From Paraburkholderia solisilvae (GTDB lineage: Bacteria; Pseudomonadota; Gammaproteobacteria; Burkholderiales; Burkholderiaceae), in contig NZ_JBHUHI010000001.1 of assembly GCF_042682325.1 (NCBI RefSeq), positions 3,523,622-3,563,621 on the forward strand: DNA of 40,000 nucleotides, given 5' to 3'. Position 1 is the stretch's first letter. The number at the start of each line of letters is the position of its first letter. The notes below the pieces were generated by a model. The model was not told the DNA's origin, ran no database searches, and saw only the letters and a list, made by a program, of their open reading frames with translations. Shown here piece by piece: positions 9,322 to 33,459 of this stretch. The translations under genes and the position numbers were made by a program.

Positions 9322-9333
9322 CGCAACCGCCGA

Positions 9334-15830: not shown

Positions 15831-15838
15831 CACGCAAA

Positions 15839-16081: not shown

Positions 16082-16159
16082 CGGCCAGGTGTGCGCGGCA
16101 CAGAGGGTCCGGCTACGTTGCTGGAACCCTTTGTAAAGCTCGAGGAAAAGGAAGGCGAA

Positions 16160-16572: not shown

Positions 16573-16636
16573 TTCGTCTCCGGGACGTTGGGAATTGACG
16601 CAGAGAATCACGTCACGAACTCATAGACCCAAACGC

Positions 16637-17170
16637 ATGAAAAACACAAAACCATTCGACGCTGCGAAATACCTGACCGACGACGAGACAATCCGCCATT
16701 ACCTCGCTGAGGCCTTCGAGAGCAGCGTCCCCGCGATTGCCCGGACCGCGCTGCACGACGTCGCACGGGCAAAGGGCGTGCAGGACGTGGCGCGCGATGC
16801 CGGCATGACACGCAAGGCGTTCGAACAAGCGCTGGCCGACGAGCATGTCGGCTATCTGACCATCCGCCGAATCGTCGAAGCGCTGGGGTTTTCGCTAACC
16901 ACAGTGCCGGCCGAATCGCCAGTTTTCCGGCGAATCATGGCCGCACGCTACAAGCGGTCGACTAGGCGTCTGCACGTCGAATTCTTGCTCGGCGTCGAGT
17001 ACATGATCCCGGTCGGACATATCGAGAAGCTGACTGCACTGGAGCCGACGGCCTCCGACCTGAAGCACGTCGAGGTGTCCAAGCGCGGTCGCTGCATCCG
17101 CTTTCCCAAGCTCGGCGTGAAAATTCGCGTGCCCGACATCAAGCGGGCGGCCATGGGGGCGTTCAGCTGA
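16637..17170 (+). CDS. Fusion of an addiction-module antidote HTH domain (TIGR02684-like) and a DUF2442-like domain
   Basis: KPFDAAKYLTDDETIRHYLAEAFES...ALHDVARAKGVQDVARDAGMTRKAFEQAL...IRRIVEALGFSLTTVP matches the antidote family. The C-terminus LHVEFLLGVEYMIPVGHIEKLTALEPTASDLKHVEVSKRGRCIRFPKLGVKIRVPDI is DUF2442-like. Confidence 0.8.
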   Translation: MKNTKPFDAAKYLTDDETIRHYLAEAFESSVPAIARTALHDVARAKGVQDVARDAGMTRKAFEQALADEHVGYLTIRRIVEALGFSLTTVPAESPVFRRIMAARYKRSTRRLHVEFLLGVEYMIPVGHIEKLTALEPTASDLKHVEVSKRGRCIRFPKLGVKIRVPDIKRAAMGAFS

Positions 17171-18009
17171 TGAACCCAACCAGCGACTACCGGCTGGATC
17201 TGAACAAAGACGACTTCGCAGAAGCCGTCCGGCTACTGTCACGCATGCATCCGTCCGACGTGAACGGCCGCTTGTTGTTCGTCTTCCGGCGCGGTTGGTT
17301 GGAACTCAAGCGTACCACCCCGATGGGCATAGCACAGGCTCAAACGTCGATCTACGCGAGTGGATGGTGGCAAGGCCTCGTAAGCGTCGACTGGAAAGAC
17401 GCGCTAAGCGTGCTCGATGACCTGTGGTTTCTCGACCCGTTCTATCTGACGTTCTCGCAACAATCGAACGTGTTCGCATTCGGCAGTCGCGTCGTCCGTG
17501 GCCGGGGCGGTGCCACACAGCAGCAATTGAAGTTCGACGCACCCGCGAACACCGATGCTCGGGTGCAGCCAGAAGCAGAGCCAGTCACGCTGCTAGACGA
17601 ACTGCTCGCCCGAATTGCACGGATTGACGTAGGGAACGCTGGGAAGCCTCCGGTGAAGATGAGCGAGATCGCCGAGCGGTACGAGCGCGATGCGGAGCTT
17701 GTGCGGCTGCTGAAGGATGCGCGAGGGGGAAAGTGCCAGGTGTGCGGGCATACCTTCAGAATGCGCAACGGCGGCACGTACACGGAAGCGCATCATCTCG
17801 AAGAACTGGTGAATGGTGGCCTCGACGTGTCGCGCAACATGCTGATCGTCTGCGCGAATCATCACCGCATGTTCCACTACGGCGACGTCGAGATCATCGA
17901 GCACACCGCCGAGCAGATCATAGTGCGGATCGACGACGAAACACATACGATCCCGCTCGCGTTCGTTCCGCCGCCAAAGCAAGCGTCAGCGGAAGCGCTG
18001 GCGCCATGA
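17170..18009 (+). CDS. HNH endonuclease-domain protein with an unassigned N-terminal domain (279 aa)
   Basis: CQVCGHTFRMRNGGTYTEAHHLEELVNGGLDVSRNMLIVCANHHRMFHYG (CxxC ... HH ... N ... CxxHH). Its start overlaps the upstream stop (TGATG at 17168..17172). Confidence 0.85.
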   Translation: MNPTSDYRLDLNKDDFAEAVRLLSRMHPSDVNGRLLFVFRRGWLELKRTTPMGIAQAQTSIYASGWWQGLVSVDWKDALSVLDDLWFLDPFYLTFSQQSNVFAFGSRVVRGRGGATQQQLKFDAPANTDARVQPEAEPVTLLDELLARIARIDVGNAGKPPVKMSEIAERYERDAELVRLLKDARGGKCQVCGHTFRMRNGGTYTEAHHLEELVNGGLDVSRNMLIVCANHHRMFHYGDVEIIEHTAEQIIVRIDDETHTIPLAFVPPPKQASAEALAP

Positions 18010-18042
18010 GCCAACTGAGAGGATGCGGTATCACCCCGCCTG

Positions 18043-18639
18043 CTATCTGAACCCGAGCGACATAAGTTCGCGCTCCAGCGACGTACGCGAAACGAACTTC
18101 TTCAGGAAGCCCCGAGATTCCATTTTCGCGCGCGCCTGCAGGACCGCTTTCTCTTTCGACAGTCGAACGATGGACATCAGACTCGTCGCGCGTCGCTCCA
18201 GCGCTGCCTGCCAGCTCTGGTCGTAGGAAGCCAAGGTTTGAAGTGCGCCGGCGAGGCCGGCGACAATTTCCGGACACGAACCCGCTCGCAATTCGGGGCG
18301 ACCACTCCGGTCCAGGAACCACCCATAGATGTATCCGGCCGCGTCCCACAACACTAGATCGAGCCGGGTCGGCTGCCCTTCAAGCAAGTAGTTGTTGAGT
18401 TCCTCAATCTACTCAAACAATGTGGCAAGCGCCGCGTGCGTGTCTGCGCCAACGCCTGCAAGCGATTCGTCGAGCGAGCGCAATGCAAGCCGCTGTGTTG
18501 CAACGTGTGCGGCCATCAAGGCGGCTCCTACTTCGCACCGGATGGGATGGCTGTCGTTGAACGGCGTGAACATGCAGGACAATTCGTCGTCAAGTTCGAG
18601 CGGCGTAAGCTCAAATAGTGGCTTCTTTTCTGTCGACAC
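18043..18639 (-). pseudogene. Hypothetical gene interrupted by a single in-frame amber codon (or read-through candidate)
   Basis: Track ORFs 18409..18639 and 18043..18387 are in the same frame, separated only by TAG (18409..18411) plus 7 sense codons. The upstream part has GAGGTG + GTG. The downstream part begins only at a TTG and has no ATG. Confidence 0.6.
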
Positions 18640-18677
18640 GGGTCACCTCGTCACGCAAACAATGTAGTGCGCCATCT

Positions 18678-19082
18678 TTAACGCCAGTCAGACAGATCCA
18701 TGTACGGCATGAAGCGCGTCTTAAGCACGTCAAGCTGCTCCGTGGCCCATGCGGCTGCGGCAGCGCGATCCCGATCGGCATGCGCGGCTTGATCCGAGAC
18801 GTCTTTCAAAAAGTCCGCGATCTCCCGCTTGAAAAGGAAGGGAGCTGCGGCTGTGCGCCCACGAAAGATCCCGACATCGTGCGGTTCCATCGGCCGCTCC
18901 AACACTAGTTCAGTGAGAAACGTCGCCGTATACAAATAAATTTCATGGCGCTTCTCGAACAAGTCCAGCATGAACCTAGCGTGCGCAACCTTGTACTGGC
19001 GATAAGCAATGGCTGCGGCTATGCAGCCGATCACCAAGGCGACAATTGCTGCCGGGATACCCTTCATTATCTCGCACCACAT
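18678..19082 (-). CDS. Membrane-anchored hypothetical protein (134 aa)
   Basis: N-terminal TM helix IPAAIVALVIGCIAAAIAY. GGGGGA lies upstream of ATG 19082. It is the second gene of a minus-strand three-gene run. Confidence 0.6.
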   Translation of the reverse strand: MWCEIMKGIPAAIVALVIGCIAAAIAYRQYKVAHARFMLDLFEKRHEIYLYTATFLTELVLERPMEPHDVGIFRGRTAAAPFLFKREIADFLKDVSDQAAHADRDRAAAAAWATEQLDVLKTRFMPYMDLSDWR

Positions 19083-19109
19083 GCCATCCCCCTGTACTGC
19101 GATGCGCCG

Positions 19110-19622
19110 CTACTCGGTCGTGTCATTGAGCAAGTCCGGTTTTCCCTCAAGGATTTCGCGCGCCCATGGCTGCATCAAAAACGGGAATCCGTTAAGTGTG
19201 CCAACCTGCGACGCCCGAAGAAGTATGCCTTTTGCTTCAAGCCCCCGCGCGACGCCGTCGCTGATCGAGTACGACACCGACGATTTTCGATCCCGGATGT
19301 ACGGGCGCAAGCGCTTCTTTTCGTCGGGCTCCAGCCGCTCCATCTTCCTGCGTTGACTGCGGCTGGTCATACCAGTCAATATCGCTATCCCGATCCAGTC
19401 GTGGATTTCGCCGATCAGGTGCGCGAGTAGAAAAGCGCATGACGCGACGAATAGCGCACCAATCCATGATCGGTACGTTTGAACGAACGCCGTCGTGCCC
19501 ACGGTTGCCTGGATCGTCGCCGGCGCGAACAGCAGGAACGCGCTCGCTGCCGCAATGCCGATCAACGGCTTAACGGCAAACTCGGCGAACGCTTTTATGC
19601 CCTCCAGCACTTCTTTTAGCAT
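19110..19622 (-). CDS. Two-TM protein, superinfection-exclusion SieB-like (inference)
   Basis: GGGGAGAAG lies upstream of ATG 19622. Two TM helices (LIGIAAASAFLLFAPATI, WIGALFVASCAFLLAHLIG), then LEPDEKKRLRPYIRDR...GVARGLEAKGILLR...FLMQPWA. This layout resembles the SieB family as I recall it. Confidence 0.7.
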   Translation of the reverse strand: MLKEVLEGIKAFAEFAVKPLIGIAAASAFLLFAPATIQATVGTTAFVQTYRSWIGALFVASCAFLLAHLIGEIHDWIGIAILTGMTSRSQRRKMERLEPDEKKRLRPYIRDRKSSVSYSISDGVARGLEAKGILLRASQVGTLNGFPFLMQPWAREILEGKPDLLNDTTE

Positions 19623-19712
19623 GTCTCTTCTCCCCGTCTGGACCGGCGTATTCTGCCACTGTGCGGACCGGGTAGGCGACGCGTTCAAAACCGGGGCGTC
19701 TATGTAAAATTC

Positions 19713-20118
19713 ATCGCATGAACGAACTGCTGTACGACGAACACATCGAGCGCACGCGCCATGCGATCATGAAGCGCATCGAACAGGCGCGCGAGCATTC
19801 ACCAAGCAGCCCGCAGCACGAAGCGTATCTCCGTACCGCCGGGACGATCCTGACCGGCCTGACCCGCAACTTCGAGGTCGCCGACGAGGACTACGATAGC
19901 CTGCGTCGGCGGATCGATGCGGAGCGCGGGACGTAGCCTATCCGGCGTTGTCCGACTGCTCCAGTTCGCTGTCTAGAGCAGCCTGACATACCCGGCGTCT
20001 CGCACCTGCCATGAGGAGTGGCCAGACGGCCAAGAGATCAACCTGCGGCGTCGTTGAAGCCGACTACTCAAACGGCGCATCGAGCACCGCTGTATCCGTG
20101 TTTTCGTGATCCTGCCAT
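19713..20118. repeat. Diverged direct repeat R2 (paralogous to 16292..16572)
   Basis: See R1. It contains the intact 72-aa plus-strand ORF and a degraded copy of the minus-strand small ORF (19938..20117; start lost, TAG after ..DAPFE). Confidence 0.7.
19718..19936 (+). CDS. Small hypothetical protein (72 aa) inside repeat R2
   Basis: MNELLYDEHIERTRHAIMKRIEQ...DYDSLRRRIDAERGT. The R1 counterpart (16296..16382, MNELPYDEHVERTHYHSLRRLIDAERRT) lacks the central part. Confidence 0.45.
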   Translation: MNELLYDEHIERTRHAIMKRIEQAREHSPSSPQHEAYLRTAGTILTGLTRNFEVADEDYDSLRRRIDAERGT

Positions 20119-20137
20119 GCGCCCTTCGAACGTGTCC

Positions 20138-22390
20138 TTATGACGTACTGACCGGCGCCGGGCTGTCCTGCGGTGGGCTGTTGCGGATTGTATCCATGCC
20201 CTTTTCGAATTCCCGCGTGGCTTCAGTTTCCACTTCATCGAGTATTCGACCGGAAGCGATCTCACGCAGGCGTGCGGATAGTTGCTCGAGATTCGTTGGA
20301 GGAAGAAGATAAGGCTCGAAAAGTTTTGGATCAACCGAGGCGATGCGATGCGTGACCCGCTCTCCGTATGTGTAGGACGTCCCGACTCGTACGGCCTTGA
20401 CGAGCAATTTCAACAGCACTTCGTCGTCGTCCATGGCGCGTTGGAACCATTGCTGGATTTCTGCTATGTCAGCCCAATTACTCCATACCAGCAGCGCGAG
20501 GTAAACATCGGGCAGTTGAATTAGGCCGTCACCCCGCGCTATTTTACGCAACCGGGCAGTCACAATGTCTCTCAATTGTTCCACCGTCGCAGGCGCAAAG
20601 GCTTGGAAGGCCGAATCACGTTGCGCAGCGTCCGCCTGATACATCCGGTCAATGCTATACGCGATTCTGCATGCTAATCCGATGGCTTCGCCTTCCCGGA
20701 TTAGTCTCAGAATTGTTGTTTCGCGTTGGTTGTCGGGCAACGCCTTTGCAAGGTGATTGATGAGCCAGAAGGCGTGTACGTCCGCGTGAACACTGAAAAA
20801 TCCGGGTACCGAATTACGTGGGTCACTCAAAAACCCGTCTCCCACGCGGAAAAATGCTTCCATGCATGCGGCTGCAAATGGGACCGGTAGGTCGTCGAGC
20901 TTTGTCAGTGCTGTGATCAAGTCGTTGGCTTTGCAAGGCCCGGAAGGTCGGCGCTCGTCGAACGCCACGACCCAAGCGTCAGCCAGCGCATCAACATTTT
21001 CCCCAAGGCGGATAAAGGCGCGTAACTCCTGCTCGCTCAACACGTCGGGGGAAACTCCGAACTGGAAATATCTATCGAACTTTTCGGACACGCAAACTCG
21101 GGCTTGTGCGCTCCAGCGACGCAGCGAGTCGGTGCCGTACGTAACATTTCCCCATACCCACTGCAGGCGTGGGAAAAGGCGTTTCATTAATGCTTTAACC
21201 GGCGCTCGATGTCTGGCAGACAGGGTTTCCAACCATCCGTCGTGGAACTGCTGAGCTTCCACGCGCTCCCCTCGGTCAGGCGCAAGACCGGTGAATTTGG
21301 CTTTGTTATCGCGGATCACTGCGTATGCGGCCGGAACAAATACACGTAGGAACTCGAGGGCAATGAAATCCACAGGATTCACCTCACCCCGTACCGCGGG
21401 AAACGTAACCATAAGTGCGTTCACTGCCCGAACCACATCGCGGGGAGTCTGGACTAGCGGCGATAGTCCATCATGAAAGACATTGCTCCAATGTGTCGTA
21501 TCGACCGCAATCTCATCGTTCCCGAGCGTACCAATGAGGCGATCAAGGTCGCGCAGAAGCTTCTGGATGAGGAACTCGTCCGAAACCGCGGGCAAGACGA
21601 ACTGCGCCTGTACAATTTTTTCGAGGTATGCATCGCCATCTGCAATTGCGAGCGAAGTCCGTAACGCTTCGGAGACAAGACGGCGGTCGAAAGCCAATAT
21701 GTATACAACGTTCGGGAAATCCGCGACGGCTTTGATCACCTTGAAGACTTCGCGTATTTCATACGGTGCAAGCCTATCGATGTCATCGACGAACACTACA
21801 AATCGCTGTGCCGCCTTCTCCAAAGCGTCGGACACTTCCGCCTTCAGTTTTCGAACGTCTTTGGGCGTTCGCTTGAACCTCTTAAGCAGCCCTGACGCAA
21901 ACGTTCCAAGCAACGGAATCGGAGCTCCCGTGGCAGCAGAAATGCTTGTTGCTACGGCAGAGCCGATCGCATCGGCATATTCAGCAAACGCGTCGGCGAC
22001 GGCCATCAGTGTTTTGTTTTCTTGCGGGAAGCGTGCACGAAACTGCTCTAGAAACTGCAACGTCAGTTGCTCACGGTCCGCAAACCACCACGGATTGAAC
22101 TCTACGCTCACGGGAAGCACTAATTCGTTTTTGACGACAGCTACATTCTGATCCAGCAGATAATGCCGCACGAAATTGAGTAAGCTCGTCTTCCCGGCGC
22201 CCCATGGCCCATCTATCGCCATTACGAGGCCCTTTGGACTCGGGGTCGTCGCGGCGGCTCGAGCAATAGTACGGGCGAAAGGGGCATAGCCGAACTCGTC
22301 AAAGGACGGATGCGCTTGCGGCGCGTCGCTGCCCAATGGGCTCTCGATTACGGGCTCAACGGCGGATGTTCTCTGGTTTTCGCCTGCCAT
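20138..22390 (-). CDS. KAP family P-loop NTPase (750 aa)
   Basis: DEFGYAPFARTIARAA...LVMAIDGPWGAGKTSLLNFVRHYL (Walker A) and RFVVFVDDIDRL (Walker B). The size and helical C-terminal region are typical of KAP NTPases. Confidence 0.95.
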   Translation of the reverse strand: MAGENQRTSAVEPVIESPLGSDAPQAHPSFDEFGYAPFARTIARAAATTPSPKGLVMAIDGPWGAGKTSLLNFVRHYLLDQNVAVVKNELVLPVSVEFNPWWFADREQLTLQFLEQFRARFPQENKTLMAVADAFAEYADAIGSAVATSISAATGAPIPLLGTFASGLLKRFKRTPKDVRKLKAEVSDALEKAAQRFVVFVDDIDRLAPYEIREVFKVIKAVADFPNVVYILAFDRRLVSEALRTSLAIADGDAYLEKIVQAQFVLPAVSDEFLIQKLLRDLDRLIGTLGNDEIAVDTTHWSNVFHDGLSPLVQTPRDVVRAVNALMVTFPAVRGEVNPVDFIALEFLRVFVPAAYAVIRDNKAKFTGLAPDRGERVEAQQFHDGWLETLSARHRAPVKALMKRLFPRLQWVWGNVTYGTDSLRRWSAQARVCVSEKFDRYFQFGVSPDVLSEQELRAFIRLGENVDALADAWVVAFDERRPSGPCKANDLITALTKLDDLPVPFAAACMEAFFRVGDGFLSDPRNSVPGFFSVHADVHAFWLINHLAKALPDNQRETTILRLIREGEAIGLACRIAYSIDRMYQADAAQRDSAFQAFAPATVEQLRDIVTARLRKIARGDGLIQLPDVYLALLVWSNWADIAEIQQWFQRAMDDDEVLLKLLVKAVRVGTSYTYGERVTHRIASVDPKLFEPYLLPPTNLEQLSARLREIASGRILDEVETEATREFEKGMDTIRNSPPQDSPAPVSTS

Positions 22391-22749
22391 TGTGGGTGCT
22401 CTTACTGGTTAAGTTTTCCGTAGGCCAGCCTAACCGTCGGCATCGATCGTTCGATGCTCATCTGCGCCTGGCGATCCTGTCATGTTTGATGCGAGAAGAG
22501 TATCGGGCGACGCTGTTTCAACGAAAAGGATAGTGCTAGCATGACGCACTTGATGCAAGTGCTAAGGTTGCCCAGCAAATGCGGAACGAATCTCATGCAC
22601 CTCTGGGCAGACCTGTGAAAAGATGCCGGCCTTGCCATGCAAGCCGTTGATGCAGTGCTGATTCGTTGCAATGCGTTCTGGGTGCGCGTGTGCAAGGAGG
22701 CATGCGCAATCCAATGCGGATCGGGCCGTAGTCGGCCGCAGGCGGTCGG

Positions 22750-22781
22750 TCAATTGCAACGTCGAGATAGTTGACAATTGA
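22750..22781. repeat. Imperfect inverted repeat containing a TTGACA hexamer, upstream of gene 22899
   Basis: tcaattgcaac - N9 - gttgacaattga. The arms match except for one extra t. No convincing -10 element was found. Confidence 0.3.
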
Positions 22782-22898
22782 TGCATGTGCCCGGTCCATG
22801 ACCGGTTACAGGAAGTGGGTAAAGCACCCCGATTTTCCGAGGGCTAAGCTGCGAAGCCGTGTCAGAGCAGAACAAGACTGTTGGTGGGCGAAAGAGAG

Positions 22899-23837
22899 AT
22901 GATTACGAATATACCGACTCCAGCCGACTACTATACGTCGGGGAAGGAACTCTTGAATTTTGCTTGGGACACTACCGCGAATCTCCTTATAGACTTCGAC
23001 CAGGCAGACTATTACGGCTACGACGAAACAGAAATATCGGACGCGTATTGGGCGGCCGCAAAGCGTACGCTGACGACGGCACTGACGATTGTGCAGCAGG
23101 CCGTAGAGCTAATCATCAAAGGACGGATCGTTGAAGTCTCTCCATACCTGTTGATATCTGATTCTCCATCGCGATGGCCCTCGCCATACGAGGGTGGTGC
23201 GATTGATTTCGAACTCTTCAGAACCATCGATGCGCAAGACCTTATCCGTGTGCATGACACATTTTCGGATACGGCATTCGACGCAAACTTCGTCGAGAAA
23301 TTTCATAACCTACGGGCCGTCCGAAATGTAGTTACGCACTCAGCCGGTAAGAACGTTTCCGTACGCGTTGCAGAGGTCATCGACAGTGCGTTGTATATGC
23401 ACAAAGCTCTATTTCCTGGCGAGAGTTGGTTCAAAATTCGCCGAGAATTTCTGCGTCGTGCGCCGAGTTCTCAGCTCGGGGCAGAGGAGTTTGCAACGAA
23501 CACAACTTGCTGGGAAGCGTCGATCGTTGTGAAGCTGTTACCACCAGCAAAGGTAGAGGCCTATCTAGGCATCGACAAAAAGCAGCGCTTGTACCTCTGC
23601 CCCGAATGTCTTTACGACGCTAATACGGACGGTGGTTTTGAGCATAAGCTAGCCGTTCTGAGGCCGAAAGGCCCTGATTCAATCAACTTGTACTGCCCCG
23701 TATGTGACCAGACACATAGCGTGGTTCGGAAGGACTGTACCAAAGCGGACTGTCCGGGGAACGTCATCGGGGAAGAATATGACCAGTGTCTGACATGCTC
23801 GTCGTGGCAAGATGAGGAAGACGAAGGCGAGTCCTGA
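22899..23837 (+). CDS. HEPN-like (Rx4H) N-terminal domain + C-terminal Cys-rich zinc-ribbon protein (312 aa)
   Basis: AAKRTLTTALTIVQQAVELIIKG ... FVEKFHNLRAVRNVVTHS (R-NVVT-H). C-terminus: CPECLYD...CPVCDQTH...CTKADCPG...CLTCSSW. Start taken at ATG 22899. Confidence 0.8.
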   Translation: MITNIPTPADYYTSGKELLNFAWDTTANLLIDFDQADYYGYDETEISDAYWAAAKRTLTTALTIVQQAVELIIKGRIVEVSPYLLISDSPSRWPSPYEGGAIDFELFRTIDAQDLIRVHDTFSDTAFDANFVEKFHNLRAVRNVVTHSAGKNVSVRVAEVIDSALYMHKALFPGESWFKIRREFLRRAPSSQLGAEEFATNTTCWEASIVVKLLPPAKVEAYLGIDKKQRLYLCPECLYDANTDGGFEHKLAVLRPKGPDSINLYCPVCDQTHSVVRKDCTKADCPGNVIGEEYDQCLTCSSWQDEEDEGES

Positions 23838-24080
23838 CACAACACCTAGAATGTCAGGCAGACGGACGTCGGCTTTCTGGCAATCCGACGATCTGCTCAG
23901 GGTCGTCCTAAGCCCCTCGCATGAGACGGTAGTCGGCCAACCACGGGCCGCTCGATCCGATCCTCAGGCGACCAGTTGAACTTCGGCATTATGCGGTAAC
24001 GAGCCCCTCGCCGCCGCTGATCTGCGCCTGTTTGGACTCGAGCATTTCAATGACTTTGTGGCCAATAATTTCGAGCGGGA

Positions 24081-25811
24081 TTGCGCGATATCGGCGAGTT
24101 CATCAACCGGATCCCTGACAACCCGCTTCGGTCGCGTGTCAGGAAGCGCCGAGCGGAGGCGATTATCAAGCGTGCCGAGCGGTGTTACCGTATCGGTTAT
24201 CGGAATTTCAGCCAGCGGTCGAGCCGGATTCTGCCAATGAAAGTATCGACGTTCCAGGGTGACTTGCCCTTCGCAATGCGCCTCGCTCGAAAAATGCCCG
24301 TGCATAAAATCAGCATGGATGAAGCGTACCGGTCTATCAGGAACCGGCTCGCTCGCTACAGCGCGACCTCGGTTCTGAACGCGGCGTTGCACATGCTGTG
24401 GAATCCCCCTGCGGGCCGGCTGGAGGAACTGAGAAGTGCTCCGTGGTTGACCATGCTGATCGTCAAATGGGCGCTCCAAGACAACGCCGTAAGGCTACAA
24501 GCCGGCCCCGCGATCACGATAGCCGAGATGGACGAGATTCGGCAGAAGTTGTGGGACATGCCGGAGCATGTGCGCGATCCACAGCCGAAAAACATCTTCC
24601 TCATGCTCCGCAGCCTGATGCATCCGCAAGTAGAGTTCCAGCGAAAGGAAACCCGGAACTACATGCGGTGGGCTGCACTGTATGCGCGGCTGCCGAAGAA
24701 CGGTGCGGACCGACAGCAGTTCCGAGCCGCCTTCGGGATGGAACCGGACGATTTCCTCGCGCTCTCGTACGCCCTGTACGCGGCCGTGCTGAACGGGGAT
24801 GTCCCGCTAAGTCGCGACTGGATGATGCCTCTGCGCGCGACGTACGGCGACAAGGTCGACAGGATTTTCGATGTGTTCGCCCGGGACATGGTGACCCTGC
24901 GCGAGGAGTTGCAGAAGGACCCGGCGCAACGTATCCATGGAAAGAACGAGCTGTACGAATTCCCATACTTGAAGCGCTTTCCGCTGCTCCAGTTGCCTAA
25001 CGGACTGATCCATTGCTGGCATAGGCTGGTGTTCGCGCGCGGGGCCGAGGAAATCGTTCACCTGCGGCTCTCCGATCTCTTCGACTCGAAATATACGGCG
25101 TCTTTCAGTCGGGTGTTCGAGAGTTACGTCACCGAGCTCGCGGGGGAGTCGGGGCTGAGCCTGATGGACGAGGCCGAGTACAAGCGTCTCGTTGGCCCGC
25201 AGATGCCCTCGGTCGAAGCCATATTCGACGGCGATGATGATTGCAATGTCTTCGTCGAGGCGAAGCTGAGCAAGTTCGAAGACGACAGTATCGTGGAGGA
25301 CAGCCCGTTGTGGGCGCATAGAAAGATGCGGCGAGTGCGTGAAGCGCTTGAACAGGGATGGAAGGTGGGGAAGGTTGTTCGCGAGAACGAGGCTCTGGCG
25401 GCGCGCTTCGCAAAGCGAGAGGATTTCCTTCTGATCGTCACCAGCCGCGAGCTCTTTATCGGCGGTGGGCAAGCGCTGCAGCGCCTGATACCGGAAGAAC
25501 ACAGAGGCTATCCCGACGACGCCGCCGAGCACACGCTGCCGCTCTCGAACGTCTTCGTGATGGGAATAGAAGAATTCGAGCGGCTGGTGGGTGCGGTGCG
25601 CAAGGGCGAGGTCAATCTGCCACGGCTTTTGCGCGACGCCGCGATGGCCAATGACGACGGGGCAACCTCGCGAATGTTCTTCAGCGACTTCTTCCGGAGT
25701 CAGGTCGCCCCTACTGGATGGACAAGTCCTCGGCTAATCAAAGACGCACACGAAAGGGTGGACGCGCTGATTGCTCATGCGATGAACCTGCCGGCGGCTG
25801 AAGATGTGTAG
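24081..25811 (+). CDS. Large hypothetical protein with a PD-(D/E)xK-like nuclease motif
   Basis: FESYVTELAGESGL...VEAIFDGDDDCNVFVEAKLSKF is a D...ExK pattern. The start is uncertain; in-frame ATGs at 24237 and 24315 are alternatives. Confidence 0.8.
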   Translation: MRDIGEFINRIPDNPLRSRVRKRRAEAIIKRAERCYRIGYRNFSQRSSRILPMKVSTFQGDLPFAMRLARKMPVHKISMDEAYRSIRNRLARYSATSVLNAALHMLWNPPAGRLEELRSAPWLTMLIVKWALQDNAVRLQAGPAITIAEMDEIRQKLWDMPEHVRDPQPKNIFLMLRSLMHPQVEFQRKETRNYMRWAALYARLPKNGADRQQFRAAFGMEPDDFLALSYALYAAVLNGDVPLSRDWMMPLRATYGDKVDRIFDVFARDMVTLREELQKDPAQRIHGKNELYEFPYLKRFPLLQLPNGLIHCWHRLVFARGAEEIVHLRLSDLFDSKYTASFSRVFESYVTELAGESGLSLMDEAEYKRLVGPQMPSVEAIFDGDDDCNVFVEAKLSKFEDDSIVEDSPLWAHRKMRRVREALEQGWKVGKVVRENEALAARFAKREDFLLIVTSRELFIGGGQALQRLIPEEHRGYPDDAAEHTLPLSNVFVMGIEEFERLVGAVRKGEVNLPRLLRDAAMANDDGATSRMFFSDFFRSQVAPTGWTSPRLIKDAHERVDALIAHAMNLPAAEDV

Positions 25812-26480
25812 GCCTGACACCCCCGGATCAGGCGGTTCTGGAACGGCACGTGCGGCGCGGCCCACCGTGTCCGGTCCACACAAGGCGGTCGAACACAACG
25901 TAAAAGCGCCGCGCCATCGAGGCGATGACGGGGATGGCAGAGTAGCGTCTGTTGAGCCTTGGCAGGAGACATTGAGACAACGAGGTATCGCATCGCCGGA
26001 GAGGGTGGGTGCTGCGGTCCGCTAAAGGTCCGACCTACAGACCGCGTATGCCAATCGCATGAGGGCGGGGTCATGTACATTTGGTCGGGCGCCGCAGAGC
26101 TGGATGTTCCACGGCCGGCTGCATTCAGATAATAGACCTGGAGCTGAGGCAACCGCGACGCTGCAAACTATATTCAGGCGACGCACGCATAAGGTTCGCG
26201 CCGACTAAATGAGGCAGCTGTACGGTCCAACAAAAACTATCCTGACGCCGCTGAAGTCTGTCGCGAGTCCGATAAGACGCCAAGATGGGAACTACCAGGC
26301 CGGTTAACGTGCTATGGCCCCAGACTTGAAAACGTTCGGTCGACGGGTAACGAAGTACTATTTGCACGCGCGGTATTTGTGACGGTATGACCTAGCTATG
26401 TTTGCAAAAATGCACGTTCGCACACGTACTTATCAGTCGAGTTGACAATCGAGTGGGAGTGAATTTACGTCCTTCGAGGA

Positions 26481-26760
26481 CTATCGTCAGCTATCGAAAA
26501 ACTGCTGTAACGTGTTGATTTTCAAGTAAATACGTCGCGGTATCTATCGGTGGCTATCGCCGGCCAGCAAAATAAGTTGGCGGTAGAGCTGACGGTAAAA
26601 ATCGGGGCCGGATTAAGACATTCTCGTTCACTATTCAGACTTTTACCGTCTTTGACGGTAAAAGTCTTCTCGGGAAAGCTTGTTTTACGCGGCTTTCCGG
26701 GCATCAACAGGTCTCCCGATCCCTGACGGTAAAACCTGACGGTAAAGCCGTCAAAATACC
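26481..26760. repeat. Dense short-repeat region upstream of int (arm-type / accessory-protein binding-site candidates)
   Basis: GACGGTAAA(A/G) at 26591, 26654, 26725 and 26738 (+), with an inverted copy at 26641..26650. CTATCG-N3-GCTATCG at 26481..26496 and 26544..26559. Degenerate copies at 26341 and 26381. Confidence 0.6.
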
Positions 26761-26773
26761 GGAGGAAACCTCG

Positions 26774-28030
26774 ATGCTCACCGACGCTGCACTACGCAAT
26801 CTGAAGCCTAAGTCCAAGATTTATAAGGCTTCTGACCGGGACGGGATGTACGTGACGGTATCGACCAGCGGTACCGTCACCTTCCGCTACGATTACCGTC
26901 TCAATGGTCGCCGCGAAACGCTGACCCTCGGGCGCTATGGCCCTGACGGTATTTCGCTGGCGATGGCGCGTGAACTACTTATAGACGCACGCAAAGCCCT
27001 TCTCAAAGGCATCTCGCCCGCGCTTGAAAAGCAGCGCGAGAAACGCCGCGTGACCGACATCAAGACCTTCGGCGCGGCGATGGGCACATTTTTGGCTCAT
27101 GCCCGATGGGCCGACAGCACCCGCGCTGCACGCAAGCACATCATTGACCGGGACATCCTGCCGGTTTTCCGCAATCGCCTGCTGACCGAAATCCAGCCTG
27201 ACGACCTGCGGACTTTGTGTAGCAAGGTCAAGGAGCGTGGGGCACCGGCTACGGCGGTGCAGATTCGGGACATCGTGAAGCAGGTCTACGTCTACGCCAT
27301 CGCTCACGGGGAAAAGGTGGACAACCCCGCCGACAGCGTGGGGCCATCCACGATCGCTACCTTCGTGCCGAAGGATCGCGCCTTGTCGCCGTTGGAAATC
27401 CGGCTGATGGTGCAGCAGATGGAATCGGTGGCGACCTATCCGACCATCAAGCTAGCGTTGCGCCTGATCCTGCTGACGCTGGTACGCAAAAGCGAATTGA
27501 TTCAGGCCACGTGGGATGAGGTCGATTTCGAGAACAAGACCTGGACAATTCCTAAGCAGCGGATGAAAGGGCGTAATCCGCATGTGGTCTATCTGTCGCG
27601 CCAGGCGCTCGACATTTTCGTGACGCTGCACGCTTGCGCGGCCGGCTCAAGGTTTGTTTTCCCATCTCGTTACGATGCACACCGGTACATGTCCAATGCA
27701 ACCTTGAATCGGGTCACAGGACTCGTGGCAGAGGCCGCACAAGCCAAGGGGCTGCCGCTGCAATCGTTCACCGTCCATGATCTGCGCCGTACCGGCTCGA
27801 CGCTGTTGAACGAAATCGGCTTCAACCGTGACTGGATCGAGAAGTGTCTGGCGCACGAGGAGGGACGTTCTTCCCGTGCGGTTTATAACAAGGCCGAGTA
27901 CGGCGAGCAGCGGCGCCACATGCTGCAAGAGTGGGCCAACATGGTCGGGGCTTGGGGCGAAGGGCAGGCCTATGTGCCGAAGCTGATGCCGGAGAACATA
28001 GTCGTGCCAGCGTTGAGTGCGACGGTTTGA
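26774..28030 (+). CDS. int: Tyrosine integrase, P4-like with a DUF4102 N-terminal arm-binding domain
   Basis: GGAGGA lies 7 nt upstream. MLTDAALRNLKPKSKIYKASDRDGMYVTVSTSGTVTFRYDYRLNGRRETLTLGRY, and the catalytic region FTVHDLRRTGSTLL ... IEKCLAHEEGRSSRAVYNKAEY. Confidence 0.95.
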   Translation: MLTDAALRNLKPKSKIYKASDRDGMYVTVSTSGTVTFRYDYRLNGRRETLTLGRYGPDGISLAMARELLIDARKALLKGISPALEKQREKRRVTDIKTFGAAMGTFLAHARWADSTRAARKHIIDRDILPVFRNRLLTEIQPDDLRTLCSKVKERGAPATAVQIRDIVKQVYVYAIAHGEKVDNPADSVGPSTIATFVPKDRALSPLEIRLMVQQMESVATYPTIKLALRLILLTLVRKSELIQATWDEVDFENKTWTIPKQRMKGRNPHVVYLSRQALDIFVTLHACAAGSRFVFPSRYDAHRYMSNATLNRVTGLVAEAAQAKGLPLQSFTVHDLRRTGSTLLNEIGFNRDWIEKCLAHEEGRSSRAVYNKAEYGEQRRHMLQEWANMVGAWGEGQAYVPKLMPENIVVPALSATV

Positions 28031-28110: not shown

Positions 28111-28422
28111 ATGCACGTCATATCCAGAAAGCCGTTCAGCGATGCAGCAAAGGCTTATCCGAACGATGCCGAGGCGATCGACCGCACCTACCGGGTGCTG
28201 CGATCCGGAGATTTCGATACACCCCAAGCACTGCGACAGGTTTTTCCGTCGCTGGATAACTTCAAGTACAAGGACAAGTGGTGGGTGCTGGACATCGGCG
28301 GCAACAATCTTCGACTGATTACCTTCATCGAGTTTCGCGACAACCGCATGTACGTCAAGCACATCACAACCCATGCCGAGTACGACAAGCTTTGCAAACG
28401 CTACCGGAAGGAGGGCGACTGA
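28111..28422 (+). CDS. higB: Type II toxin HigB (mRNA interferase)
   Basis: MHVISRKPFSDAAKAYP...VFPSLDNFKYKDKWWVLDIGGNNLRLITFIEF...THAEYDKL closely parallels E. coli HigB (FPSLDNFKY motif). Confidence 0.92.
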   Translation: MHVISRKPFSDAAKAYPNDAEAIDRTYRVLRSGDFDTPQALRQVFPSLDNFKYKDKWWVLDIGGNNLRLITFIEFRDNRMYVKHITTHAEYDKLCKRYRKEGD

Positions 28423-28423
28423 A

Positions 28424-28840
28424 ATGGGATTTGCCGCCATCAAGGAACGAGCCCATGCCTTGTTCGACGAGGCGGGCTTCATTGGCCATATCGCCAATGA
28501 AGGTGATTATGCCCAGGCACTGGCCTTGATGGATGAACTGGTCGAAGACTACGAGGCCAATCGCCCGCTGATCGCGATCCTAGCCCGTTCCATCGAAATC
28601 TGGGAAAACGAGTCCGACGAGTTTGCGGCGTTCAACGCGCGCGTGGCGAAGCTGGGTGGCGTTGACGTGCTCCGGTTGCTGATGGAGCAGCATGGGTTGG
28701 GCGTGGCCGATCTACCGGAGATTGGGAGCAAGTCGCTGGTGTCGAAGATTCTCAATGGCCGAGGCCGCAATCTGACTCGCGACCACATCGCGGCATTGAG
28801 CAAGCGGTTCTCAGTCAGCCCGGCTATTTTCTTCGGTTGA
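28424..28840 (+). CDS. higA: Antitoxin HigA (XRE-type HTH)
   Basis: EGDYAQALALMDELVED...IEIWENESDEFAAFNA...LRLLMEQHGLGVADLPEIGSKSLVSKILNGRGRNLTRDHIAALSKRFSVSPAIFF. The start is 1 nt after the higB stop. Confidence 0.92.
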   Translation: MGFAAIKERAHALFDEAGFIGHIANEGDYAQALALMDELVEDYEANRPLIAILARSIEIWENESDEFAAFNARVAKLGGVDVLRLLMEQHGLGVADLPEIGSKSLVSKILNGRGRNLTRDHIAALSKRFSVSPAIFFG

Positions 28841-29011: not shown

Positions 29012-29392
29012 TTATTCCTCACTCGAACCCGCCCGAACAGGGCGGGTTTTTCGTAGGTGGACATCCGGCTTCGAGATGCCGCGAGGGGCTTGCTTGCGCC
29101 GCTCGATCCACGCTTCCACTTCAGCCAAATCCCACACTACGCAGCGCGGCGTCAGATTGAAGCGGCGGGGGAACTCGCCGCGTCGCTCCATTTCGTAGAT
29201 CGTCGTTTCGGCGAGGGGGACTATCTGCCGCAGTTCCTGGCGACGAATGGTGCGTCGGAAGGGAAGAGGATTACCCTTCGGAAATTGTGGCAGCGCCTCG
29301 TAGGCTTCCGTCCCTGGCAAAGGGAGTGACTGGTCGGCATCGATGTTGGCTGCGCTGGATGTTTGCGATAGCTGTTCCACTTCGGACTCCAT
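29012..29392 (-). CDS. alpA: AlpA-family HTH regulator/excisionase-like protein with an N-terminal extension
   Basis: IRRQELRQIVPLAETTIYEMERRGEFPRRFNLTPRCVVWDLAEVEAWIERR is the AlpA/MerR-type HTH. The start is uncertain (ATG 29392 or 29428). Confidence 0.75.
   Translation of the reverse strand: MESEVEQLSQTSSAANIDADQSLPLPGTEAYEALPQFPKGNPLPFRRTIRRQELRQIVPLAETTIYEMERRGEFPRRFNLTPRCVVWDLAEVEAWIERRKQAPRGISKPDVHLRKTRPVRAGSSEE
29026..29051 (+). terminator. Rho-independent terminator-like hairpin (plus strand)
   Basis: aacccgccc-gaaca-gggcgggtt followed by ttttt. It lies within the last codons of the minus-strand alpA-like ORF. Confidence 0.5.
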
Positions 29393-29518
29393 GAGCACGC
29401 TGCATGGAGACATTGTGAAGTTCAGCACCTATCGAGACAACTTGCTGCGGCGTAGCGCAGCGAATTCGGGGGAGGTCGATGTCCACCAGTCTCTGCCTTC
29501 CGATCTCAACATCGAACT

Positions 29519-31315
29519 CTATGGGACTTGATCGTAGTCGAACTTGCACGCTGCCAGTTTCCGAGTCGCTTCGTATTCCTTTCCGGAATATTGCGTGCGA
29601 CCGCGTTCCGAGATAAGGTGCAGATTTTTCCGGGCACGAGATCCGATGACGTAGAGCAATTTCATCGCGCTTTCTTGGCCGTTTGGATCGTTGAAGTGGG
29701 GCACTATATCTTCAAGAAGGGCGTAGGCGATCACAGTATCGAACTCCGCTCCTTTCACGCCGTGGATCGTTGAAATGGTTATCCCCGTGCGGCTTTGAAA
29801 GACCTTACGGAATGTCTCGATGCCCCCGATAAATTCAGTCCCTTCTTTTTTCAGTCGATCAATTCTGACTTGAGAGCTTTCAAAGAATGCTTTATGGTGT
29901 TCTTGAAGTAGTGGGAAAAGCCGAAAATCTATGACTAGGTTAAAGAATAGAGTCTCAAAGAATTTCTGAAGATAGGCGAGTCCGTCACCCTCATCGATCC
30001 GGATTTTATTGCATTCTTTGAGTAGCGATTTTCTAGTGAGGCCGGAAGTGCTCACGCCGACGGTCTCCAGGTCATTCAGAATTTCCCCGGCCCATCGTAG
30101 TCTGCGTACGTACATGCTCGGCGATGCTTGTGTCAAAGCAATCTTCGCAAGCTTGTACCAAAAATTGTCTGTGTCCCGAGCGAAGGGAACCATGCCTGGA
30201 CCATCGAATGAATACTCTGGCATGCTGGCAACCAAGCGGCGCGTCATGCTTGCCAGATGCACCCACTGCGGCGCAAGTATGCAGATCTCGTGAGGAACAA
30301 TTCCCTTGGTCTGGATGTTGAAACGAATCAGTCGAATCAACTCATTTTCCAGATCTTCCTTGCTGACCGTCGTGTTAAAAGAGATCAGGCTTTGATAGCT
30401 CTTGTCTTTAGACTCAGATTCGATCTTGGTTGCATGGACGTTGAAGTTGCCAAAATATTCGATGATGCGTTCAGAAGAACGATAGTTCTTTGAAAGTTCG
30501 AGTTCGTCAATATCGATTCCCGCCATGGCCTTGAAATCTTCATAAGCCATCGGGTAGCCACCGAGTGTCTGGTAAATTGCCTGATTGGGGTCTCCTACAA
30601 TCAGGGTTTTCGTCGTGCCTTGGCCGGCTCTCAGAATTGAAGTGATGATTGAATACTGGATTCGTTTAGTGTCTTGATACTCATCTACCAGAACGAAGGC
30701 AAACAATTTGCTCAAAATGGCACTAATGGCTGGGCGGCTGACAATTAACTGATGGGCGTAGAATAGAATTAACTCGAAATCTATTTCTCTGTTTTTTATT
30801 AGAATGTCAAAATAACCTTCCAGTATCTTATGTAAGCCATCATGCTTCCAATCCTGCTGGCATGAAAGGATGTAGCCGGTTTCGGTAAAATAGAAATCGC
30901 AGTCCCAGAAAGTAATTTTGGGCTTTTTGTACGGTTCGCACAGCTTTTCTAAAATCTTCTCGCGCTCATGTTGGTCGATGACGCGAAAGCCGCGCTTCAG
31001 AGCATCGTGATAGATGCCATATGGTTTCAATATCCATTCCAAGCAAAAGGAGTGGATGGTTCCAATCCACAGCTGGGACGTGTCTACCCCCAAATCCTCG
31101 ATCCGTTCGTGAATCTCGTCAGCCGCACGATGCGTATAGGTGATGGCGATGACAAATTGTTTTTTTGACTCCAGTCGAGATAGCTCATATGCAATCTTGT
31201 AGGTCAGGGTCCGAGTTTTACCGCTCCCTGGGCAGGCGACAAGAAATACACTGCCAGGGTGCAGGATTGCCGCATCCTGCTCAGGGTTCAGGTCGTCGTT
31301 ATCCCACGTGAACAT
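29519..31315 (-). CDS. gajB: UvrD/Rep-type SF1 helicase, Gabija GajB-like
   Basis: Walker A VACPGSGKTRTLTYKIAY, VLVDEYQDT, IVGDPNQAIY, and TIHGVKGAEFDTVI. The start is 2 nt after the gajA-like stop. Confidence 0.85.
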   Translation of the reverse strand: MFTWDNDDLNPEQDAAILHPGSVFLVACPGSGKTRTLTYKIAYELSRLESKKQFVIAITYTHRAADEIHERIEDLGVDTSQLWIGTIHSFCLEWILKPYGIYHDALKRGFRVIDQHEREKILEKLCEPYKKPKITFWDCDFYFTETGYILSCQQDWKHDGLHKILEGYFDILIKNREIDFELILFYAHQLIVSRPAISAILSKLFAFVLVDEYQDTKRIQYSIITSILRAGQGTTKTLIVGDPNQAIYQTLGGYPMAYEDFKAMAGIDIDELELSKNYRSSERIIEYFGNFNVHATKIESESKDKSYQSLISFNTTVSKEDLENELIRLIRFNIQTKGIVPHEICILAPQWVHLASMTRRLVASMPEYSFDGPGMVPFARDTDNFWYKLAKIALTQASPSMYVRRLRWAGEILNDLETVGVSTSGLTRKSLLKECNKIRIDEGDGLAYLQKFFETLFFNLVIDFRLFPLLQEHHKAFFESSQVRIDRLKKEGTEFIGGIETFRKVFQSRTGITISTIHGVKGAEFDTVIAYALLEDIVPHFNDPNGQESAMKLLYVIGSRARKNLHLISERGRTQYSGKEYEATRKLAACKFDYDQVP

Positions 31316-31317
31316 GA

Positions 31318-33459
31318 TCAGAACACCTTGAGCACGTCATTGATGCGATCATCGGGAAATGCAGCAAGCACCTCGTTCCGGATGCTCACGAAGTCGATTT
31401 CCCCGTTCAAGAAGGCCGTTAGCTTTTGTCGGAACGCATTGCATTGTTCCGTGGTTGCGGCAGAAAAAATATCTTCTTCTTGAAGCTTCAGCCGATAGCT
31501 CAGAACGTTGAACCAGACTTCCTTCTTGACTACCGGATGAGCGAAGGCAACGGCGCGGAGAATATATTCCGGGATGGCTGCATCTGAATCGATTTTCTTG
31601 CCAAGCAGGATGGCGAGCCAGCCTTTGCCGTAGTTATCGGCAATCGTCAATGCCCGCTGTCCGTAGAGCGCCACATCTGCGGATTCGAGATCCGCCTTGG
31701 CTGTAGCGATGGTGGCCTTGTCCTTGTATACCTCGGGAAGAATGCCGACTACTTTTCGTGCGTTGCCTGCCGAGACGAAATCGACTTCAAACGTATGTGA
31801 TGCGAAGAATGACGCAATCCACGGGTTTCCATTGAATGCCGCTTCCAACGCAGCCTTCCTCGCGATTCCCTTCTCTTGGGACGCCTGGTACTTCTTCTTG
31901 CGCTGCTGCACCGCTTCGGGCTCGCCGGCTATGAGAGTCGTGTCGATGATGGCCTTATCGAGGTCGGTGACGATACTGCATCGCTTCCGAATTCGATCGC
32001 TATGGAAAAGGGCAGCGACGTTCTGGAAGCCGGTGCTTCTTATATTAATGAGGCTGATGCCAAGTTCATCCAGGCTTACTCCAAATACCTTTTTGATGAG
32101 TATCGGGATCAAAATCTCTTCGGCGTCGCCTTCGACTAAGACTACGCTTTTCGCGAATAACAGGTTGCTGCGCACCGCGTCCAAGTAGCGTTGGACGTTA
32201 CCGATCTCTTCATCTGTGAGGCCGGCCGTCGGCTGATAGGCTTCGCATCGATCAGGCTCTCTGCCAAGAATGTTCATATTCTGAACATTGCTGACCTCTG
32301 AAATATGCGACGAGTGGGTAGAGTAGATAATCTGCGTCTCGTCGTACTGGATGCGATCAAATAGCGTCTTTTGAATGTGTGTGTGAATATGGGCTTCCGG
32401 CTCTTCAATCAACAGAAAGTTTGCTATCGATTGTTTGGCCTTCTGGTACTTGAATTCCAGTAGTTTCAACGTGAGAAATATCAAATTGGCCCCACCAAGG
32501 CTTAGCTCGTGGATTGGTCCTTCATAGCCCTCTGTTGACTCCCCAACAAACAGCTTGAGCGACTGGAATAGTCTGTCAGCTTCATCCGGAAGATCTGATT
32601 TGATCGATAGAGAGGCAGGCGAGTACGCCTCGCCGGCAGCGTCCTTGATGGTGTCTCGTATGTCGGTGCGAACAACCTGGACATCCTGTAAGGACTCTAT
32701 CGAGTCATTCAGAGCTTTCACCCCATCGGTGATGGCCTGAAAGGCCACGGGATCGATGTCGCCGCTCTTAGCCTTCAGTAGCGATAGAAGGGGGTTTGTC
32801 CGGTTGTTGTGAAATTCAGATACTACGTCTCGCAGTGCCTGAACAAACGTGAAAGATATTTCCTTGGAAACGGATAGCACGCTTGGAATTTTAGCGCCGA
32901 TTACAGGGAATTCAATTTCCTCACTGAATCTGGCGTTTTCGAAATCGCCAACGACTTCCTTATAAAATTTATCGTCATTGAAGTCCGCTGCACTTCGGCC
33001 TGTAAATATCGTCTCGTAGTCTTCTATGGATATTGAGTTCTGAATTGCAGCAAGGCCGTCGTGATCGCCATCATCCAGTTGGGACAGGCTGAGGCGAATT
33101 TCTTTCTTGGGGCGGAAAATCAGGTTGTAAGTTGCTCGTCCGACAGGCTCGTCGTCGACGATTCCGGCCCCATGGCAGAACAACGCTTGAACAGCTTCGT
33201 CGGCCGAGATTTCTTCAAATTCCAGGCTGATGATGATCCAATGTCCTTGCCATTTCTCTAAGCCGCGATGGAAGTCAGTCGAATCCAGGCGGTAGGCAGA
33301 CCGGATCATGTTGTCATCGAGCAATAGCCTGATCGCGCGGAATAGGTTGGTTTTCCCTGACCCATTCTCGCCAATGATGGTGTTAACGCCCTTATTGAAT
33401 AGGAGTTTCGTATTCGCGAAATTTCTGTAGTTGATCAGGCTGAGCTTGGAAATGTGCAT
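31318..33459 (-). CDS. gajA: OLD-family ATPase + Toprim nuclease, Gabija GajA-like (713 aa)
   Basis: ISKLSLINYRNF...IIGENGSGKTNLFRAIRLLL (Walker A), LSLGGANLIFL, LLIEEPEAHIH (Walker B), and STHSSH. Toprim: VVLVEGDAEEILIP ... SIVTDLD. Confidence 0.85.
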   Translation of the reverse strand: MHISKLSLINYRNFANTKLLFNKGVNTIIGENGSGKTNLFRAIRLLLDDNMIRSAYRLDSTDFHRGLEKWQGHWIIISLEFEEISADEAVQALFCHGAGIVDDEPVGRATYNLIFRPKKEIRLSLSQLDDGDHDGLAAIQNSISIEDYETIFTGRSAADFNDDKFYKEVVGDFENARFSEEIEFPVIGAKIPSVLSVSKEISFTFVQALRDVVSEFHNNRTNPLLSLLKAKSGDIDPVAFQAITDGVKALNDSIESLQDVQVVRTDIRDTIKDAAGEAYSPASLSIKSDLPDEADRLFQSLKLFVGESTEGYEGPIHELSLGGANLIFLTLKLLEFKYQKAKQSIANFLLIEEPEAHIHTHIQKTLFDRIQYDETQIIYSTHSSHISEVSNVQNMNILGREPDRCEAYQPTAGLTDEEIGNVQRYLDAVRSNLLFAKSVVLVEGDAEEILIPILIKKVFGVSLDELGISLINIRSTGFQNVAALFHSDRIRKRCSIVTDLDKAIIDTTLIAGEPEAVQQRKKKYQASQEKGIARKAALEAAFNGNPWIASFFASHTFEVDFVSAGNARKVVGILPEVYKDKATIATAKADLESADVALYGQRALTIADNYGKGWLAILLGKKIDSDAAIPEYILRAVAFAHPVVKKEVWFNVLSYRLKLQEEDIFSAATTEQCNAFRQKLTAFLNGEIDFVSIRNEVLAAFPDDRINDVLKVF

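Follow-up and report, generated by a model that had tools for sequence, protein, structure and literature searches.

Two genes at the locus

We have analyzed a stretch of 40,000 nucleotides (nt) from Paraburkholderia solisilvae (NCBI RefSeq assembly GCF_042682325.1, contig NZ_JBHUHI010000001.1, positions 3,523,622 to 3,563,621 of the forward strand), which is hereafter called the window, and within it the interval 22750-25811. This interval contains two long open reading frames (ORFs) on the plus strand, i.e., 22881..23837 (gene 1) and 24081..25811 (gene 2). A preliminary description, made from the letters of the sequence, had proposed that they form an uncharacterized two-gene nuclease system, and both ORFs are present on the same strand as it described. 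The alignment of homologs places the start of gene 1 at ATG 22899 (MITNIPT), yielding a protein of 312 amino acids (aa), and the start of gene 2 at ATG 24237 (MKVSTFQ), yielding a protein of 524 aa. Thus, the intergenic gap, which had been given as ~240-480 bp depending on the gene 2 start, now measures 399 nt (23838-24236). The features of the two genes are as follows:

22872..23847, plus strand: gene 1 mobile unit, comprising the ORF with 27 nt upstream (ribosome-binding region) and 10 nt downstream, delimited by blastn
22899..23837, plus strand: gene 1 coding sequence, 312 aa, with a predicted N-terminal HEPN-like helical domain (DUF3644/HEC-08-like) and a predicted C-terminal double zinc ribbon, from homologs, the AlphaFold2 model and remote profile matches
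23322..23339, plus strand: R142-N143-V-V-T-H147, an Rx4H HEPN-type motif at the C-terminal end of the predicted helix 129-147, from its invariance and the HEPN helix-3 rule (PMC3710099)
23598..23798, plus strand: two predicted Cys4 zinc ribbons (C234/C237 with C266/C269, and C280/C285 with C297/C300), from conserved cysteines, a beta-strand-rich region of the model and sub-threshold DZR_2/HEC-08 matches
23848..24154, no strand: junction DNA of 307 nt, outside both homology blocks and shared with relatives of neither gene
24155..25816, plus strand: GapS1 mobile unit, comprising the gene 2 ORF with 82 nt upstream and 5 nt downstream, delimited by blastn
24237..25811, plus strand: gene 2 coding sequence, 524 aa, a single-protein PD-(D/E)xK anti-phage protein of the GapS1 family, from NF047931, the start by alignment and the AlphaFold2 model
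25215..25265, plus strand: predicted PD-(D/E)xK core of gene 2, i.e., E327 ('VE'), C336-N337 and E341-A-K343, from columns that are invariant or nearly so when 13 and 55 sequences are aligned

Gene 2 belongs to the GapS1 family

The product of gene 2 matches the NCBIfam model NF047931 (antiphage_GapS1) over positions 1-454 of 455 with 461.6 bits, the curated cutoff being 320, which establishes its family membership. Several of its homologs carry the NCBI name 'GapS1 family protein'. Gene 2 is GapS1, an already named family to which it adds one more Burkholderiales member and nothing else new, and a direct annotation as GapS1 is possible. The preliminary description had judged gene 2 to be unrecognizable outside a nuclease core, a view that the end-to-end match overturns. 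It had also been unable to assign the locus to any named defence system, which no longer holds, since gene 2 is GapS1 (10.1101/2023.03.28.534373), and gene 1 shares its architecture and a weak homology with HEC-08 (10.1101/2024.01.29.577857).

The classification of gene 2 as a PD-(D/E)xK-like protein, which had been made before, is borne out by the NF047931 match, by a conserved ExK and by a fold match to the defence protein Upx. The catalytic D..ExK core had been located in FDGDDDCNVFVEAK, a sequence that is indeed present in gene 2. Its ExK part stands, since E341-A-K343 in the 524-aa numbering (E393/K395 in the ORF numbering) is invariant across 55 homologs, but the DGDDD run proposed to provide the catalytic aspartate is variable among the relatives. 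The conserved acid is instead E327 of 'VE' (E379 in the ORF numbering), 14 residues upstream, which is conserved in at least 90% of the 55 homologs.

The AlphaFold2 model of gene 2 has a predicted local distance difference test (pLDDT) value of 89.3 and a predicted template-modeling score (pTM) of 0.88. In a Foldseek search, its sole significant match in the PDB was Upx (9wuf; E = 2.3e-4, probability 1.00, 529 aligned columns), and the weak matches included the PD-(D/E)xK nucleases SduA, SfsA, NucS and SgrAI. Upx resembles gene 2 in being a single-protein PD-(D/E)xK defence (Nat Commun 2026, PMC13099982), but, at ~1270 aa, it contains a middle domain in addition to two nuclease domains, and its template-modeling score (TM-score) to the gene 2 model is only 0.33. 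GAPS1 is unmentioned in the Upx paper (PMC13099982), and the relationship between GapS1 and Upx may have gone unremarked so far.

GAPS1 has been described as a defence that consists of one protein, the C-terminal domain of which is a PD-(D/E)xK, and its members protect when they are cloned as single genes (Mahata et al., 10.1101/2023.03.28.534373). According to the same work, defence by the Vibrio parahaemolyticus GAPS1 is lost in the D313A and K328A mutants, T7 mutants that escape GAPS1 carry mutations in the capsid protein Gp10, and the co-expression of GAPS1 and Gp10 produces a growth arrest in which viability is kept. Judging by the spacing of the residues, the E327/K343 region of gene 2 probably corresponds to D313/K328 of the V. 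parahaemolyticus protein. Gene 2 resembles the described GAPS1 proteins in its full-length family match, in the conserved ExK core and in its occurrence as a single gene in variable island-type contexts, whereas it differs from them in belonging to a Burkholderiales branch, with 37-90% identity to the relatives retrieved, and in having a glutamate ('VE') as the upstream acid. By homology with the GAPS1 proteins already studied, the window GapS1 would combine sensor and effector in one polypeptide, so that a phage structural protein (in the case of T7, the major capsid protein) would switch on the C-terminal PD-(D/E)xK phosphodiesterase domain, and the growth of the infected cell would stop. 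Such a trigger and such a phenotype presumably apply to the window protein as well.

Gene 1 encodes a predicted HEPN and zinc-ribbon protein

The family of gene 1 is large, comprising 260 homologs at E <= 1e-3 in a word-indexed search and 776 clusters at 50% identity in an exhaustive profile search. Its members have ~300 aa nearly throughout, and every named one is a 'hypothetical protein'; eight longer members (389-433 aa) carry C-terminal extensions in which no Pfam domain was found below E = 0.001. The relatives are distributed among Beta-, Gamma- and Deltaproteobacteria, Cyanobacteria, Chloroflexi, Planctomycetota, Acidobacteria, Chlorobi, Spirochaetes, Verrucomicrobia, Firmicutes and Actinobacteria. 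A homolog was found on only one IMG/VR contig, and thus gene 1 cannot be regarded as a typical phage gene.

We have analyzed the conservation of gene 1 in 150 representatives of 28-48% identity. R142, N143, H147, C234 and C237 are invariant, and a conservation of at least 90% is seen for Q67, E70, K74 and the six other cysteines. The Rx4H motif that had been noticed in a helical context (LRAVRNVVTH) is present in gene 1 and has been borne out, since R142-N143-x3-H147 is invariant in the 150 relatives, which far exceeds chance, and the motif lies on a predicted helix. The four CxxC pairs previously listed are three CxxC pairs (C234/C237, C266/C269 and C297/C300), whereas the fourth pair is a Cx4C (C280/C285). 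From their order in the sequence, these eight cysteines can be putatively paired into two zinc sites.

The AlphaFold2 model of gene 1 (pLDDT 89.3, pTM 0.85) comprises the helices 8-38 and 48-80, the latter holding E70, an insert (81-128), and the helix 129-147, the third long one, which terminates in RNxxxH. The remainder consists of the helix 157-171, more helices and a beta-rich region (234-300) with all four cysteine pairs. HEPN domains typically have Rx4-6H at the end of helix 3, a conserved acid in helix 2 and frequent inserts between helices 2 and 3 (Anantharaman et al., PMC3710099), and the predicted model of gene 1 agrees with these three points.

In Pfam, NCBIfam, PHROGs and PADLOC, the gene 1 protein of the window had no match that exceeded the threshold, and two profiles (A2 and A4) retrieved only cysteine-rich noise when they were compared with the PDB by sequence. 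The remote matches come from the family as a whole. In Pfam, 15 of the 150 members have sub-threshold matches to HEPN_RiboL-PSP, HEPN_Swt1 or HEPN_Cthe2314, another sub-threshold match, to DZR_2, is found in 10 members, and the family consensus matches HEPN_Swt1 below threshold over residues 65-149 (E = 0.008). The PADLOC model for DUF3644 is matched by 70 members (best E = 3.9e-6) and by the consensus (E = 1.2e-6), and the PADLOC model for HEC-08 (PDLC04162) by 52 members (best E = 4.9e-7). The match of the consensus to HEC-08 is co-linear over the HEPN and zinc-ribbon regions, residues 67-300 being aligned with model positions 48-267 of 358 (E = 5.5e-4). The analysis thus shows the conservation, the predicted fold and the remote homology of gene 1, and the early guess of a HEPN-like protein with C-terminal zinc ribbons is supported by these three kinds of evidence.

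HEC-08 is a phage defence with experimental support that needs the histidine of its Rx4-6H motif (Payne et al., 10.1101/2024.01.29.577857). Together with the DUF3644/EC042_2821 HEPN family (PMC3710099), it shares with the predicted architecture of gene 1 an N-terminal HEPN domain, the Rx4-6H motif, C-terminal zinc modules and the organization as one gene of ~310-360 aa. However, HEC-08 is embedded in the Hma (helicase-methylase-ATPase) system, whereas gene 1 neighbors the KAP NTPase PifA and GapS1, constitutes a large family in its own right and is also found as an integron cassette. On the basis of these profile comparisons, gene 1 is a remote relative of HEC-08 and not a detected member of it, and it appears to be a divergent, unannotated HEPN and zinc-ribbon protein of the DUF3644/HEC-08 type with a presumed role in defence.

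A second comparison can be made with RAZR/PD-T7-4, in which a zinc-finger domain senses ring-forming phage proteins and the HEPN domain cleaves single-stranded RNA (ssRNA), stopping translation (Zhang et al., Nature 2026, PMC13017515). As predicted for gene 1, a Cys4 zinc ribbon and a divergent HEPN RNase are found in a single protein, but their order is reversed, since the zinc finger of RAZR is N-terminal and its HEPN domain, of the DUF4145 type, is C-terminal, with the motif R146...H154. Neither DUF4145 nor PD-T7-4 was matched by the gene 1 protein of the window, and neither is among the families listed for the 150 members. Two other entries are candidate members of the gene 1 family: the 'Zinc Ribbon (Npun_R5629)' architecture listed under the Swt1-like HEPN in PMC3710099, and 'Esos', an integron defence of V. 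cholerae whose sole domain is HEPN-like.

Absence of linkage between the two genes and proposed function of gene 1

On the gene 1 side, we have inspected 54 genome loci together with their flanks, which extended up to 7 kb in either direction. GapS1 was found within 7 kb in none of them (tblastn and family hidden Markov model), PifA was equally absent from the 54 loci (tblastn), and an all-against-all clustering of the ORFs from 54-56 loci revealed no conserved partner, no neighbor being common to more than a handful. On the gene 2 side, none of 21 GapS1 loci contained a member of the gene 1 family at E <= 1. The genes upstream of the GapS1 relatives vary, encoding a HEPN_RiboL-PSP-like protein, an MFS transporter, an integrase, a rubredoxin or, at one locus, both a NucS_C protein and a DUF2971 protein, and the flanking genes on both sides differ in every relative examined.

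The homology at the nucleotide level points in the same direction. Gene 1 is 88.7% identical over 976 nt (blastn) to its closest relative, from Paraburkholderia sp. BCC1886 (loci L003/L059), and the similarity ends abruptly on both sides. GapS1 is 86.5% identical over 1663 nt (blastn) to its closest relative (locus L061), whose upstream gene is unrelated to gene 1. The gap between the two genes contains no terminator and no credible small ORF, short overlapping ORFs being all that is found, and no Rfam family was detected in the whole window. In V. parahaemolyticus JABCIA010000004.1, the gene 1 homolog (10001-10909; locus L057, region 7800-20909) is a single-ORF cassette between two attC-like repeats, within an array of 19 such repeats that adjoins an integron-type integrase (6902-7864); therefore, gene 1 moves alone.

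The absence of linkage between both genes is thus established. Because they do not co-occur, because the homology ends at the gene borders and because of the V. parahaemolyticus cassette, we consider it highly probable that GapS1 and a divergent HEC-08-like protein are two anti-phage modules of one gene each, which are unrelated, move independently and adjoin within a defence island on a mobile element. This case also illustrates that genes adjoining on the same strand of a defence island give little support to a multi-gene system.

Several observations weigh against this interpretation. Since the two genes lie on the same strand and no terminator is predicted between them, their co-transcription in this genome is possible. 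The gene 1 protein of the window matches HEC-08 only with E = 0.012 (12.8 bits) and in the zinc-ribbon region alone, and it matches no curated HEPN model. Its predicted structure, compared by Foldseek with the PDB and BFVD, found nothing at E <= 1e-3, the HEPN-MNT toxins 8xeh, 7bxo and 1jog being only weak matches (E ~1, TM-score 0.3-0.5). In addition, many neighbors of the gene 1 homologs are housekeeping genes, and the association with defence islands is only moderate. In favor of the interpretation, the window itself carries several defence genes, and single ones among 101 immediate neighbors of the gene 1 homologs have strong matches to a type I restriction endonuclease, GajB, KwaB, AriA, HEC-01A/B and PDC-S71, an association of the gene 1 family with defence genes that is suggestive.

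The gene 1 homolog of Pusillimonas sp. CP049990 (locus L001, 4446-10481) is found just past dnaA-dnaN-gyrB, with a MauJ-family gene upstream and, downstream, a gene encoding a 251-aa protein of unknown type followed by an IS21-type insertion (IstA/IstB).

The architecture that gene 1 shares with HEC-08, and the combination of zinc-finger sensing and HEPN cleavage of ssRNA in RAZR, lead us to propose a single-protein abortive-infection RNase, each functional step of which is drawn by analogy. Gene 1 would be inactive before infection and would dimerize via its HEPN domains, the two R-N-x3-H motifs forming one composite active site. The zinc-ribbon region would be the sensor or regulator, as the zinc-finger domain is in RAZR, and the activated protein would cleave RNA, so that translation would halt, resulting in abortive infection or growth arrest. 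We would give an even chance to the broader proposal that gene 1 represents a widespread family of single-protein abortive-infection RNases missed by present tools, in which a DUF3644-like HEPN domain would be activated by a double zinc ribbon recognizing a phage component, and which would travel as a minimal promoterless cassette, also in integrons. The family is in fact not detected above threshold by Pfam, NCBIfam or PADLOC, and a profile built on gene 1 would widen the annotation of defence across many phyla and integron cassette arrays. If the proposal is right, gene 1 would provide, beside RAZR, a second and domain-swapped case of zinc-ribbon control of a HEPN RNase.

Three other explanations have to be weighed against two independent modules and a gene 1 RNase acting in defence. 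According to the first proposal made for this DNA, genes 1 and 2 would constitute one operon encoding a two-component nuclease system, e.g., a HEPN RNase that acts with, or regulates, the PD-(D/E)xK protein. Their location on one strand, 399 nt apart with no predicted terminator between, would be compatible with it, and in L061 an 85%-identical GapS1 also follows a same-strand gene with a weak HEPN_RiboL-PSP match. However, the protein encoded by that gene is not homologous to gene 1 (BLASTP E = 0.15), other GapS1 relatives have different upstream genes, the pair was recovered in 0/54 and 0/21 loci, the homology blocks stop at the borders of each gene, and GAPS1 proteins defend as single cloned genes. 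The two-gene system fails because there is no synteny, which the preliminary description had itself named as grounds for abandoning it, and we regard it as very improbable.

The function of gene 1 admits two further interpretations. It could be a selfish addiction or stress toxin, i.e., a HEPN RNase that stabilizes integron arrays or islands, or that induces dormancy under stress, a role already proposed for HEPN proteins of integron cassettes (Anantharaman et al., PMC3710099). The single-ORF cassette in the Vibrio superintegron fits this idea, as do the mobile-element genes that adjoin gene 1 homologs at many loci and the frameshift-split homologs in five of the 54 loci (L044, L051, L052, L055 and L056), a decay expected for a costly or toxic gene. 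Nevertheless, gene 1 has no conserved antitoxin-like partner beside it and its mobile unit is too small for one, its closest characterized relative, HEC-08, is a phage defence, and defence genes abound in integron cassettes as such (10.1101/2024.07.02.601686), all of which makes a toxin unlikely. Gene 1 could also be a zinc-ribbon regulator without nuclease activity that binds nucleic acid or protein, RNxxxH having a structural or ligand-binding role as in non-catalytic HEPN domains, and indeed, neither structures nor curated profiles yield a significant match of the window protein to a catalytic HEPN. This is hardly plausible, since the R, N and H invariant in 150 diverged members, together with the conserved glutamate of helix 2, are the signature of an active HEPN RNase (PMC3710099), and the equivalent histidine of HEC-08 is needed for function.

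The HEPN-like gene of L061 deserves a separate comment. It is located at 1274-2257, on the same strand upstream of GapS1, and encodes a 327-aa protein with the motif VRHDIVH; its position is most likely a defence-island coincidence. A general pairing of a HEPN gene with GapS1, which this locus prompted us to consider, was rejected, given that gene 1 and the L061 protein are not related and that other GapS1 relatives are without such a neighbor.

The neighborhood of the two genes

The window is mobile and rich in defence genes. It encodes an insertion sequence transposase, DnaB, a resolvase, a PIN_12 protein, an AAA_25 protein, an addiction-module antidote protein and TrbI. It also contains the genes for a type IV restriction-like HNH protein, SieB, PifA, GapS1, HigB/HigA and GajB/GajA, together with gene 1. 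Features in and around the interval include the following:

20138-22390, minus strand: PifA (KAP NTPase), a full-length homolog (PADLOC PDLC02361, E = 2.8e-116, model positions 4-707 of 720)
22750..22781, no strand: imperfect inverted repeat with TTGACA (TCAATTGCAAC...GTTGACAATTGA) in the PifA/gene 1 intergenic region, 11 pairs with one bulge
28111-28840: HigB/HigA, in the same integrase island as Gabija
29012-29428: AlpA, in the same island
29519-33459, minus strand: complete Gabija inside the integrase island, i.e., GajB (PADLOC E = 1.2e-268) and GajA (AAA_15 and an OLD-like TOPRIM)

The divergent KAP NTPase noticed opposite the two genes is confirmed and corresponds to PifA. The PifA protein of the F plasmid excludes T7 and is triggered by gp1.2 or by the capsid protein gp10. 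If this is true for the PifA of the window, gene 1 would be flanked by two capsid-sensing systems, PifA and GapS1.

The inverted repeat with TTGACA that had been described upstream of gene 1 exists, but its hairpin is no better than shuffled sequences (z = -1.18; 28 of 200 shuffles fold equally well or better), and a promoter and terminator scan called no sigma-70-like promoter across 22300-26800. The repeat also lies outside the segment conserved with the nearest gene 1 relative (L003), and it is not part of the conserved gene 1 unit and is probably meaningless.

The integrase-bounded island reported downstream is likewise present, with an integrase at 26774-28030. The region 26445-26974 has a counterpart of 82.6% identity in the Ralstonia solanacearum megaplasmid CP025986, which there spans the final bases of guaA and the beginning of an integrase. 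The island from 26774 onward appears to be of the type that inserts next to guaA, and since guaA itself is not upstream here, tandem or nested islands are suggested.

On the other side of the interval, a direct repeat of 180 nt (16336-16515 and 19890-20069) has 79% identity, with a mean column identity of ~85% over the wider, gapped region. The repeat includes the 3' end of a small ORF (19718-19936, ending in ...DYDSLRRRIDAERGT) along with DNA downstream of it, and its two copies bracket the HNH/SieB segment.

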